Assembly (NCBI RefSeq): GCF_050920415.1
Contig: NZ_CP169309.1
Length of the DNA: 64,000 nucleotides
Strand: one strand, 5' to 3'
From: Escherichia coli
GTDB lineage: Bacteria; Pseudomonadota; Gammaproteobacteria; Enterobacterales; Enterobacteriaceae
Below are positions 46,539 through 50,312 of this stretch, piece by piece (position 1 is the first letter of the stretch; each line of letters starts with the position of its first letter). Below the pieces are notes generated by a model. The model was not told the origin of the DNA and made no database searches. It saw nothing but the letters and a program-made list of their open reading frames with translations. A program made the position numbers and the translations under genes.

Positions 46539-46657
46539 CGCGTATCCTCCTCTGAAGATATTCTTTAAGTTTACTCCTTTCCTGCAATCATCAGGATTAA
46601 TTCAGAGTTATATACCAGGCTTAGCTGGGGTTGCCCCTTAATCTCTGGAGTATAACG

Positions 46658-48403
46658 ATGATAAAACCGACGTTTTTACGCCGGGTGGCTATTGCTGCTC
46701 TGCTCACAGGAAGTTGTTTTAGTGCTGTCGCCGCGCCACCTGCGCCGCCGCCAGTCTCGTATGGCGTGGAGGAGGATGTCTTCCATCCGGTACGCGCGAA
46801 GCAGGGGATGGTAGCATCTGTGGACGCCACTGCCACTCAGGTGGGGGTAGATATCCTTAAGCAGGGCGGGAATGCCGTTGATGCTGCCGTGGCAGTGGGC
46901 TACGCGCTGGCGGTAACACATCCGCAGGCAGGGAATCTGGGCGGCGGCGGTTTTATGCTGATCCGCACTAAAGATGGCAATACCACCGCCATCGATTTCC
47001 GCGAAATGGCACCCGCCAAAGCGACCCGCGATATGTTCCTTGATGATCAGGGCAACCCGGACAGCAAAAAATCTCTCACTTCGCATCTTGCTTCTGGCAC
47101 ACCCGGTACGGTAGCGGGCTTCTCGTTGGCGCTGGAGAAATACGGCACCATGCCGCTGAACAAAGTTGTGCAGCCTGCGTTTAAACTGGCACGCGATGGT
47201 TTTATCGTTAACGATGCGCTGGCAGACGATCTCAAAACCTACGGCAGTGAAGTGCTACCAAATCACGAAAACAGCAAAGCTATCTTCTGGAAAGAGGGCG
47301 AACCGCTGAAAAAGGGCGACAAGCTGGTACAGACGAATCTGGCAAAGAGCCTGGAGATGATTGCCGAAAACGGCCCGGATGAATTCTACAAAGGCACGAT
47401 AGCGGAACAGATCGCCCTGGAGATGCAGAAAAACGGTGGCTTGATCACTAAAGAAGATTTAGCGGCCTATAAAGCGGTCGAACGTACACCAATAAGTGGC
47501 GATTATCGCGGGTATCAGATTTACTCCATGCCACCGCCATCCTCCGGCGGGATCCATATCGTACAGATCCTCAATATTCTGGAAAACTTCGATATGCAGA
47601 AATACGGCTTTGGCAGCGCCGATGCGATGCAAATCATGGCAGAAGCGGAGAAATACGCCTACGCCGACCGCTCGGAATATCTTGGCGACCCGGATTTTGT
47701 CAAAGTACCGTGGCAGGCGCTGACCAATAAAGCCTATGCCAAATCTATTGCTGATCAAATCGATATCAATAAAGCGAAGCCATCCAGCGAAATTCGCCCC
47801 GGCAAGCTTGCGCCTTATGAGAGTAATCAAACTACCCATTACTCTGTAGTGGATAAAGACGGTAACGCGGTGGCGGTGACCTATACGCTGAACACCACCT
47901 TCGGTACGGGTATTGTCGCGGGTGAGAGCGGTATTCTGCTTAATAATCAGATGGATGATTTCTCCGCCAAACCGGGCGTACCGAACGTTTACGGGCTGGT
48001 GGGTGGTGATGCTAACGCTGTCGGGCCGAATAAACGCCCGCTGTCGTCGATGTCACCAACCATTGTGGTCAAGGATGGTAAAACCTGGCTGGTCACCGGA
48101 AGCCCAGGTGGTAGCCGGATTATCACCACTGTGCTGCAAATGGTGGTGAACAGCATCGATTATGGCATGAATGTCGCCGAAGCGACCAATGCGCCGCGTT
48201 TCCACCATCAGTGGTTGCCGGACGAGCTGCGTGTCGAGAAAGGATTTAGCCCGGATACGCTCAAGCTGCTGGAAGCAAAAGGTCAGAAAGTGGCGCTAAA
48301 AGAGGCGATGGGCAGTACACAAAGCATTATGGTTGGGCCGGACGGCGAATTGTATGGCGCTTCCGACCCACGTTCGGTAGATGATTTAACGGCGGGGTAT
48401 TAA
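46658..48403 (+). CDS. ggt: Gamma-glutamyltranspeptidase Ggt
   Basis: ATG with GGAG SD; signal peptide MIKPTFLRRVAIAALLTGSCFSAVAA; autoprocessing-site region ...NQTTHYSVVD. Confidence 0.95.
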   Translation: MIKPTFLRRVAIAALLTGSCFSAVAAPPAPPPVSYGVEEDVFHPVRAKQGMVASVDATATQVGVDILKQGGNAVDAAVAVGYALAVTHPQAGNLGGGGFMLIRTKDGNTTAIDFREMAPAKATRDMFLDDQGNPDSKKSLTSHLASGTPGTVAGFSLALEKYGTMPLNKVVQPAFKLARDGFIVNDALADDLKTYGSEVLPNHENSKAIFWKEGEPLKKGDKLVQTNLAKSLEMIAENGPDEFYKGTIAEQIALEMQKNGGLITKEDLAAYKAVERTPISGDYRGYQIYSMPPPSSGGIHIVQILNILENFDMQKYGFGSADAMQIMAEAEKYAYADRSEYLGDPDFVKVPWQALTNKAYAKSIADQIDINKAKPSSEIRPGKLAPYESNQTTHYSVVDKDGNAVAVTYTLNTTFGTGIVAGESGILLNNQMDDFSAKPGVPNVYGLVGGDANAVGPNKRPLSSMSPTIVVKDGKTWLVTGSPGGSRIITTVLQMVVNSIDYGMNVAEATNAPRFHHQWLPDELRVEKGFSPDTLKLLEAKGQKVALKEAMGSTQSIMVGPDGELYGASDPRSVDDLTAGY

Positions 48404-48410
48404 TATCTTA

Positions 48411-48438
48411 AGCCCTCTCCCGGTAGGTGAGGGCTTTT
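48411..48438. terminator. Terminator hairpin between convergent ggt and yhhY
   Basis: AGCCCTC-loop-GAGGGCT followed by TTTT. Confidence 0.6.
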
Positions 48439-48452
48439 AGATTACAAATTCT

Positions 48453-48941
48453 CTATTTCACCCGCGCCATATAATACGCATCGACATATTCGCCATTACG
48501 AAAAGCGTAATTTTTGCCGGTACCTTCTATGAGAAATCCGAATTTTTTATAGACTGCGATTGCCGGGGCGTTATCCGCAAACACCGTCAACTCAATACGA
48601 TCTATCCGTAACCAGTTGTCGCACATTTCAATCAATTCGCGGATCAGGGCGCTGGCGATGCCACGGTTGTGCCAGCGGGAGTCAACACAGATACCAAAAG
48701 TTGCAACATGACTGCGACGTGGGCCTTGATAAGCTTCCACGAAAAGATGACCCACCACGATACTATCAATGCAGGCAACCAGTTGTTTAAATCCCTGGCG
48801 ATCTTTCAATCTTTCTGGCCACCAGCCTTCCGAAGGATGAGGTAGTTGTAGCGTGTTGTAATACACCTCCGGCTGGGCGTGAATTTGCCTGATGGCCTCG
48901 TAATCCCGTGTTTCTGCGTGGCGTATTACTATCTCACTCAT
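48453..48941 (-). CDS. yhhY: GNAT family N-acetyltransferase YhhY (162 aa)
   Basis: Internal ATG giving MSEIVIRHAETRDYEAIRQIHAQ...; GNAT motif region QGPRRSHVATFGICVDSRWHNRGIASALI. Confidence 0.85.
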   Translation of the reverse strand: MSEIVIRHAETRDYEAIRQIHAQPEVYYNTLQLPHPSEGWWPERLKDRQGFKQLVACIDSIVVGHLFVEAYQGPRRSHVATFGICVDSRWHNRGIASALIRELIEMCDNWLRIDRIELTVFADNAPAIAVYKKFGFLIEGTGKNYAFRNGEYVDAYYMARVK

Positions 48942-49041
48942 TCCTTTGTCCTCTTTGGGGTAAATGTCCCTTTCAACATCATTGACTTTCAAATGCGAGT
49001 CAAATGCATTTTTTTGCAAAAAGTGTTGGACAAGTGCGAAT

Positions 49042-49060
49042 GAGAATGATTATTATTGTC
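49042..49060 (+). promoter_or_regulatory. Fur box in the ryhB promoter
   Basis: GAGAATGATTATTATTGTC matches the 19-bp Fur consensus GATAATGATAATCATTATC at 15/19 positions, ending 3 nt before the ryhB 5' end. Confidence 0.75.
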
Positions 49061-49062
49061 TC

Positions 49063-49152
49063 GCGATCAGGAAGACCCTCGCGGAGAACCTGAAAGCACG
49101 ACATTGCTCACATTGCTTCCAGTATTACTTAGCCAGCCGGGTGCTGGCTTTT
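49063..49152 (+). ncRNA. ryhB: Iron-responsive small RNA RyhB
   Basis: 90-nt sequence GCGATCAGGAAGACCCTCGCGGAGAACCTGAAAGCACGACATTGCTCACATTGCTTCCAGTATTACTTAGCCAGCCGGGTGCTGGCTTTT matches RyhB as recalled, with terminator hairpin and U-tail; lies between yhhY and yhhX as in K-12. Confidence 0.9.
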
Positions 49153-49274
49153 TTTTTGATCTTTCGTTTTCAATTTATCCACGGGAAGTGCTTGTGATCG
49201 TTATGCGCACTCCAGTAGGAACCACGTCCGCTTTGCGCTAAGGTGTAAATAATCACCTTAAAAAGGACGAAATC

Positions 49275-50312
49275 ATGGTCATCAACTGCGCCTTTATTGG
49301 CTTCGGCAAAAGCACCACCCGTTACCATCTGCCGTATGTACTTAACCGCAAGGATAGCTGGCATGTCGCGCATATTTTTCGCCGCCATGCGAAGCCGGAA
49401 GAACAGGCCCCCATTTACTCTCATATCCATTTCACCAGCGATCTCGACGAAGTACTAAACGATCCCGATGTTAAGCTGGTTGTTGTCTGCACCCATGCGG
49501 ACAGCCACTTCGAGTACGCGAAGCGCGCGCTGGAGGCTGGGAAAAATGTGCTGGTCGAAAAACCGTTTACTCCGACGCTTGCCCAGGCGAAAGAACTTTT
49601 TGCGCTGGCGAAAAGTAAAGGGCTGACCGTCACGCCGTATCAGAATCGTCGCTTTGATTCCTGTTTTCTGACGGCGAAAAAAGCGATTGAAAGCGGCAAG
49701 CTGGGAGAGATTGTTGAAGTGGAAAGCCATTTTGACTATTACCGCCCAGTGGCAGAAACCAAACCTGGACTGCCGCAGGATGGCGCGTTCTATGGCCTTG
49801 GTGTGCATACGATGGACCAGATTATCTCGCTGTTCGGTCGCCCGGATCACGTCGCTTATGACATCCGCAGCCTGCGTAATAAAGCCAATCCTGACGACAC
49901 CTTTGAAGCGCAGCTATTTTATGGCGATCTAAAAGCCATCGTCAAAACCAGCCATCTGGTGAAAATCGATTATCCGAAATTTATCGTTCATGGGAAGAAA
50001 GGTTCGTTTATTAAATACGGTATCGACCAGCAGGAAACCAGCCTGAAGGCTAACATTATGCCCGGCGAACCGGGATTCGCGGCGGATGATTCGGTCGGTG
50101 TGCTGGAGTATGTCAATGACGAGGGCGTGACGGTCAGAGAAGAGATGAAGCCAGAGATGGGCGATTACGGACGCGTTTATGATGCGTTGTACCAAACCAT
50201 CACCAGCGGGGCGCCAAATTACGTCAAGGAATCTGAAGTTCTTACCAATCTGGAAATCCTTGAACGCGGTTTTGAGCAAGCCTCTCCCTCCACAGTGACT
50301 CTTGCGAAGTAA
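49275..50312 (+). CDS. yhhX: Gfo/Idh/MocA-family NAD(P)-dependent oxidoreductase YhhX
   Basis: 345-aa ORF with N-terminal Rossmann-type segment (MVINCAFIGFGKSTTRYHLP). Confidence 0.9.
   Translation: MVINCAFIGFGKSTTRYHLPYVLNRKDSWHVAHIFRRHAKPEEQAPIYSHIHFTSDLDEVLNDPDVKLVVVCTHADSHFEYAKRALEAGKNVLVEKPFTPTLAQAKELFALAKSKGLTVTPYQNRRFDSCFLTAKKAIESGKLGEIVEVESHFDYYRPVAETKPGLPQDGAFYGLGVHTMDQIISLFGRPDHVAYDIRSLRNKANPDDTFEAQLFYGDLKAIVKTSHLVKIDYPKFIVHGKKGSFIKYGIDQQETSLKANIMPGEPGFAADDSVGVLEYVNDEGVTVREEMKPEMGDYGRVYDALYQTITSGAPNYVKESEVLTNLEILERGFEQASPSTVTLAK

Follow-up and report, generated by a model that had tools for sequence, protein, structure and literature searches.

The ryhB small RNA gene and its Fur-overlapped promoter between yhhY and yhhX in Escherichia coli

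The ryhB locus

The window, a stretch of 64 kb (64,000 nt) of Escherichia coli DNA, contains an ORF-free gap that the initial annotation had assigned to the small RNA RyhB. The gene indeed fills this gap: it lies between yhhY (48453..48941, − strand) and yhhX (49275..50312, + strand), in a spacer of 333 bp. The features of the locus are as follows.

48453..48941, − strand: yhhY, N-acetyltransferase, divergent neighbour (K-12 and PGAP annotation)
49027..49032, + strand: −35 hexamer TGGACA of the ryhB promoter (promoter scan; position kept in 41 yhhY-linked orthologues)
49036..49060, no strand assigned: Fur-binding cluster (best 19-bp box 49042..49060; weaker overlapping register 49036..49054)
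49051..49056, + strand: −10 hexamer TATTAT, within the Fur box (promoter scan; 6 nt 5' of the annotated RNA start at 49063)
49063..49157, + strand: RyhB sRNA, 95 nt in the K-12 annotation (100% identity to b4451; RF00057 covers 49092..49156)
49063..49097, + strand: 5' stem-loop, outside the Rfam model (separate folding of 41 orthologues)
49096..49120, + strand: conserved core or seed, the 25-mer GCACGACAUUGCUCACAUUGCUUCC (exact 25-mer in at least 120 loci of three orders)
49121..49130, + strand: A/U-rich linker AGUAUUACUU (sequence; AGUAUUA/AGUGUUU in orthologues)
49131..49157, + strand: Rho-independent terminator (terminator scan; hairpin 49131..49149, then a T-run to 49157)
49275..50312, + strand: yhhX, oxidoreductase, co-directional downstream neighbour (K-12 and PGAP annotation)

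We scanned the whole 64-kb window with all 4227 Rfam families at gathering thresholds. RF00057 (RyhB) matched 49092..49156 on the + strand with 83.1 bits, where the gathering score is 55 (E-value 3.6e-14, model positions 1–67 of 67). The scan gave no other Rfam match and no second RyhB copy within the window. Comparison with the RyhB covariance model had been fixed beforehand as the refutation test for the initial annotation, and the gene came through it well above the threshold. The model spans just the 3' two-thirds of RyhB, leaving the 5' 29 nt outside, and therefore the 5' end of the RNA was set by comparison with K-12. Between the yhhY start codon and the last T of the terminator run (48942..49157), no base of the window differs from E. 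coli K-12 MG1655 (100% identity), whose ncRNA ryhB (b4451; 3580922..3581016, complement) lies between yhhX and yhhY and maps to 49063..49157. The RF00057 match and this identity together place the RyhB RNA where it had been annotated.

Morita et al. (2015) give the length of RyhB as 95 nt (PMC4509938). The classical 90-nt form corresponds to 49063..49152, with its 3' end within the U-tail, and the sole difference between the two forms is the number of tail U's counted. The interval originally annotated, 49042..49152, reads GAGAATGATTATTATTGTC-TC-GCGATCAGG...GCTGGCTTTT.

We are thus practically certain that 49027..49157 represents ryhB of E. coli, the gene for the iron-sparing sRNA RyhB, and none of the results speaks against this. 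Judged by its sequence, this copy is the orthologous ryhB itself, the same as the K-12 reference, beyond mere membership in the RyhB family. It is an already known gene in its textbook form, showing no departure from the K-12 gene.

Promoter and Fur-binding site

A consensus scan of 48800..49400 detected a single promoter-like site, at 49027..49056 on the + strand, where TGGACA and TATTAT are separated by an 18-nt spacer and 10 of 12 positions match the consensus. Its −35 hexamer (49027..49032) falls outside the interval 49042..49152 and is represented by TAGACA, TGGACA or TTTACA at this position in the 41 yhhY-linked orthologues.

A 19-bp Fur box had been noted directly 5' of the RNA, and it is borne out as the unique match in the window. 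The box GAGAATGATTATTATTGTC (49042..49060) has three mismatches to the consensus GATAATGATAATCATTATC on the − strand and four on the + strand. It is the one match with at most three mismatches in 64 kb, where 0.00 are expected and none occurred in 100 shuffles. It spans −21 to −3, leaving 2 nt to +1, and the −10 hexamer falls inside it; a box over the −10 is the geometry of a repressor that would exclude RNA polymerase.

A second, weaker Fur register, shifted 6 bp upstream (49036..49054), scores best in several relatives. It agrees with the published four-site overlapping cluster: in K-12, four overlapping sites spread across 31 bp form the ryhB cluster (25.2 bits, with its centre at −15), and purified Fur shifts it in a gel shift (PMC2189734). 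Fur binding at the site in the window is taken from these published experiments on the identical K-12 sequence and would be expected to be the same.

RNA architecture

Folded one by one, the 5' segments of all 41 orthologues (41/41) form a hairpin closed at the same end positions, with sequence and length varying (24–48 nt). In the window, UCAGG (49067..49071) pairs with CCUGA (49089..49093). The stem pairs change between genera, from UCAGG/CCUGA in Escherichia to UUCUG/CAGAA in Pantoea and UUUCC/GGGAA in Erwinia, and in 19 of the 41 orthologues the length of the segment differs from that in the window by a non-multiple of three. A hairpin kept through such changes of length and sequence marks a structured RNA as opposed to coding sequence. 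RNAalifold applied to the 41 orthologues recovered just the invariant core hairpin and the terminator, missing the 5' stem because of alignment gaps. The single-sequence minimum free energy of the 90-nt RNA is not significant (z = −0.67) and was given no weight; a value of this kind is expected where an sRNA has to keep its seed open.

The predicted fold leaves the core single-stranded. The core 9-mer GACAUUGCU (49100..49108) can form a perfect 9-bp duplex with positions −4 to +5 of K-12 sodB, spanning the start codon; we treat this match as descriptive. RNAduplex energies computed for full-length RyhB against 90-nt target regions, where the duplexes are unrealistically long, were modest for sodB (10–14 of 500 shuffles were as good) and no better than shuffles for grxD.

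Downstream of the core, the A/U-rich linker is inferred, by analogy with published RyhB work, to be part of an Hfq-binding module (PMC4509938). The terminator, the one such site found by the consensus scan in 48800..49400, has the stem AGCCAGC/GCUGGCU (49131..49149) with seven pairs and the loop CGGGU, followed by a nine-T run at 49149..49157. The initial description of a 90-nt RNA ending in a GC-rich hairpin with a U-tail is thus accurate, five of the seven stem pairs being G-C. Among the 41 orthologues, the stem GCCAGC/GCUGGC is invariant and the loop is variable. The efficiency of the ryhB terminator has been reported as ∼80%, and Hfq binds only correctly terminated RyhB (PMC4509938). On the − strand, we found no RNA family in the whole-window Rfam scan and no promoter or terminator match in the scan of 48800..49400.

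Conservation across bacteria

For the comparative scan, we used the 25-nt core GCACGACATTGCTCACATTGCTTCC and one genome per species. The exact core occurs at no fewer than 120 loci in Enterobacterales, Vibrionales, and Aeromonadales; because this 25-mer was itself the search pattern, its invariance among the loci fetched has no evidential weight. In 102 of 116 usable RyhB copies among the loci listed, the 160 nt upstream of the core contain a Fur box with at most four mismatches. Boxes of this quality were absent from all 1750 control segments (0/1200 random 160-nt segments and 0/550 AT-rich segments of the same loci).

In the alignment of 41 yhhY-linked orthologues, the nearly invariant elements are the −35, the Fur/−10 block ATGATAATGATTATTATTG, the GC at +1, the GCCAGC/GCTGGC stem, and the T-run. 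The parts that vary are the loop of the terminator and the 5'-terminal ∼30 nt of the RNA.

Many species carry two or three exact copies of the core. In Salinivibrio (locus L058), two cores stand in tandem ∼300 bp apart (11696 and 12002), each with a Fur-like box 63 nt upstream. In Klebsiella pneumoniae, a second RyhB-family gene (74.1 bits; L123, 3998..4061) is located close to fiu, which encodes a catecholate siderophore receptor; this second gene is probably the ryhB-2 described earlier (PMC3415461). It is overlapped in antisense by a CDS for a 66-aa hypothetical protein (WP_004151911.1; L123, 4014..4214, −), which is likely spurious. The record, NZ_CP076548.1, is labelled "plasmid p2" and is a 221-kb linear sequence with chromosomal-looking genes.

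Plasmid and phage collections were searched for mobile RyhB, and most matches proved to be chromosomes or bacterial contigs. A 10.9-kb circular plasmid of Enterobacter roggenkampii (NZ_CP045066.1) has a RyhB-family match (70.5 bits; L124, 2438..2501) among diguanylate-cyclase and stress-membrane-protein genes, adjoining IS903B and an integrase, and may represent chromosomal DNA captured onto a plasmid. Two phage-labelled records of ∼2 kb (OR845464.1 and OR851358.1; Escherichia, Salmonella) carry the complete RyhB promoter and gene (88.5% identity); the remaining two "phage" matches are Salmonella genome contigs annotated "RyhB RNA". The RyhB records filed as phage look like bacterial DNA.

Flanking genes

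The core has yhhY head-to-head in 48 fetched loci from several families of Enterobacterales, among them loci of Escherichia, Yersinia, Serratia, Pantoea, Erwinia, Rahnella, and Hafnia. In these 48 loci the yhhY start codon lies ∼150–215 nt from the core and ∼100–120 bp from the Fur cluster. Downstream of the core, yhhX was found in 22 fetched loci, all from close relatives of Escherichia.

A mechanically called yhhY ORF, 48453..49019 (−), begins at a TTG at 49019, no more than 8 bp from the ryhB −35, and encodes 188 aa. In both K-12 and PGAP annotation, yhhY starts at the ATG at 48941 (162 aa), leaving room for divergent promoters. In a genomic SELEX study, the ryhB/yhhY spacer appears among minor sigma factor peaks, in a table for extracytoplasmic stress (PMC5493296).

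One may ask whether the Fur cluster mainly controls a flanking gene, either yhhX by read-through or the divergent yhhY, its adjacency to ryhB being secondary. Historically, yhhX was the gene first reported for this fragment as a Fur-titration hit, by Vassinova and Kozyrev (PMC2189734), and the consensus scan detected no separate promoter-like site between the terminator and yhhX, while the ryhB terminator passes ∼20% of transcripts (PMC4509938). The head-to-head position of yhhY in the 48 loci can be read in the same way. Against this, the box covers the ryhB −10 and stops 2 nt short of +1, the classic geometry of a ryhB repressor, and the layout of box and core persists where yhhX and yhhY are both missing, as in the paralogues and in the Vibrio and Aeromonas copies. 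We therefore consider it improbable that a flanking gene is the main target; Fur control of such a gene would at most be an effect additional to that on ryhB, not a replacement for it.

A related reading is that the spacer could be a shared, Fur-controlled bidirectional region, with yhhY as an unrecognised iron-responsive gene tied to RyhB and, likewise, yhhX iron-regulated via read-through of the ryhB terminator. We regard this as a rather unlikely, speculative extension, in which the conserved head-to-head yhhY–ryhB pair, or yhhX read-through, would have regulatory meaning.

Overlapping reading frames

Three ORFs overlap ryhB: 49056..49241 (+), 48964..49197 (+), and 49000..49104 (−). None had a Pfam match at threshold, and the protein-coding reading of all three was rejected.

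As open reading frames exist on the + strand, the interval might be thought to encode a small protein, of 61 aa (49056..49241) or 77 aa (48964..49197), instead of or besides the RNA. We give this next to no credence. The TTG at 49056 lies 7 nt upstream of the +1 (49063), and both ORFs cross the terminator, 49056..49241 running 84 nt beyond it. The product of this ORF is 61 aa long in the window; the lengths elsewhere are 53 aa (K-12), 78 aa (E. albertii), and 62 aa (another Escherichia). These products agree just where the RNA constrains them, and the C-terminal half is frame-shifted or unrelated, owing to a 1-bp indel in K-12 as well as further changes. The lack of a Pfam match and the non-multiple-of-three length differences of the 5' RNA segment (19 of 41 orthologues) also argue against a protein, and inspection by eye of the 20 nt before internal TTG/GTG codons revealed no evident Shine-Dalgarno-like sequence. 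The initial annotation had judged 49056..49241 not to be a protein gene, and its start 5' of +1, the crossed terminator, the missing Pfam match, and the unstable C-terminus uphold that judgement.

Distribution and annotation within E. coli

Of 5426 complete E. coli genomes, 5424 have the ryhB region. In 5413 of these 5424, the promoter and RNA are at least 99% identical, and the region is always chromosomal. This conservation, together with full identity to the functional K-12 gene in promoter, Fur site, RNA, and terminator, leaves virtually no room for a decayed or silent ryhB relic. The function of ryhB in this strain is read from its identity to the K-12 gene.

PGAP annotation of a strain 100% identical here has no ncRNA at ryhB, and the curated K-12 record does have the ncRNA ryhB. 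In all 20 of the PGAP-annotated RefSeq E. coli genomes listed (20/20), the span of the ryhB promoter and RNA (49027..49157) is without any annotated feature. PGAP-annotated RefSeq E. coli genomes thus miss the ryhB feature even though the gene is near-universal in complete genomes of the species. The value of the present assignment lies in correct annotation: with it, the 333 bp separating yhhY from yhhX are accounted for and a spurious ORF drops out.

Proposed mechanism

At the post-transcriptional level, RyhB acts as the master regulator of iron sparing. As the sequence shows, a sigma-70 promoter (−35 at 49027, −10 at 49051) is overlapped by the Fur cluster (49036..49060) and would drive a 90–95-nt ncRNA. 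Fe2+-Fur represses ryhB, and iron starvation lifts the repression (PMC8544716). For the identical K-12 gene, the literature documents that the RNA is induced when iron is limiting or fur is mutated, and that its targets decay in a manner dependent on Hfq and RNase E (PMC2189734, PMC4509938, PMC8544716). Following the K-12 literature, in iron-replete cells Fe2+-Fur would occupy the −10 region and the start site, blocking RNA polymerase; when iron is scarce, Fur would be released and RyhB made. Hfq would then bind the linker and the U-tail, stabilising the RNA, as described in the literature.

RyhB is reported to pair with ∼20 mRNAs, with translation blocked and the mRNAs decaying through the RNase E degradosome, and Hfq both stabilises RyhB and scaffolds the complex (PMC8544716). 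In the window copy, it is the core that would pair with translation-initiation regions of these ∼20 mRNAs for non-essential iron-using proteins, e.g., sodB and sdhC. The pairing would block translation and recruit the RNase E degradosome, so that iron is spared.

Comparison with known systems

Going by their published descriptions, Pseudomonas PrrF1/2, Staphylococcus IsrR, and Haemophilus HrrF follow a like logic, in which a Fur-repressed sRNA lowers iron-using proteins. To our knowledge, they are unrelated to RyhB in sequence.

The RyhB of Vibrionaceae has an identical 25-nt core and a Fur box 60–72 nt upstream, and lacks synteny with yhhY or yhhX. The two loci tested, from Salinivibrio (L058) and Aliivibrio (L013), share this core and yet do not attain the gathering score of RF00057.

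The RyhB paralogues (ryhB-2 of K. pneumoniae and extra copies in Yersinia, Serratia, Photorhabdus, Pantoea, and Hafnia) have in common the 25-nt core, the terminator, and the upstream Fur box. However, they occupy other loci, e.g., adjoining fiu in Klebsiella, and differ in their 5' parts, whereas the window copy is the yhhY-linked orthologue.

The closest counterpart is RyhB of E. coli K-12 (b4451, RF00057), which has the same promoter, Fur cluster, RNA, and terminator (100%), and the same neighbours yhhY and yhhX in the same orientation. Four substitutions or indels distinguish the two strains in this region, including the 1-bp indel, and all of them lie between the terminator and yhhX. The other side of yhhY also differs: ggt abuts yhhY in the window, while K-12 has yhhZ, yrhA, and IS1E downstream of yhhY. 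The gene ggt (46631..48403, +) stops 49 bp short of the yhhY end (junction 48404..48452), both here and in strain MFDS1022581, which matches at 100%. In K-12 MG1655, a block comprising yhhZ (a putative endonuclease), the yrhA pseudogene, and IS1E lies directly downstream of yhhY (L001, 3364..5001), and hence we consider this block a strain-variable insertion. All features that define RyhB at the sequence level are found in the window copy, namely, the RF00057 score, the core, the Fur box over the promoter, the terminator with its U-tail, the position between yhhY and yhhX, and the complementarity to sodB.
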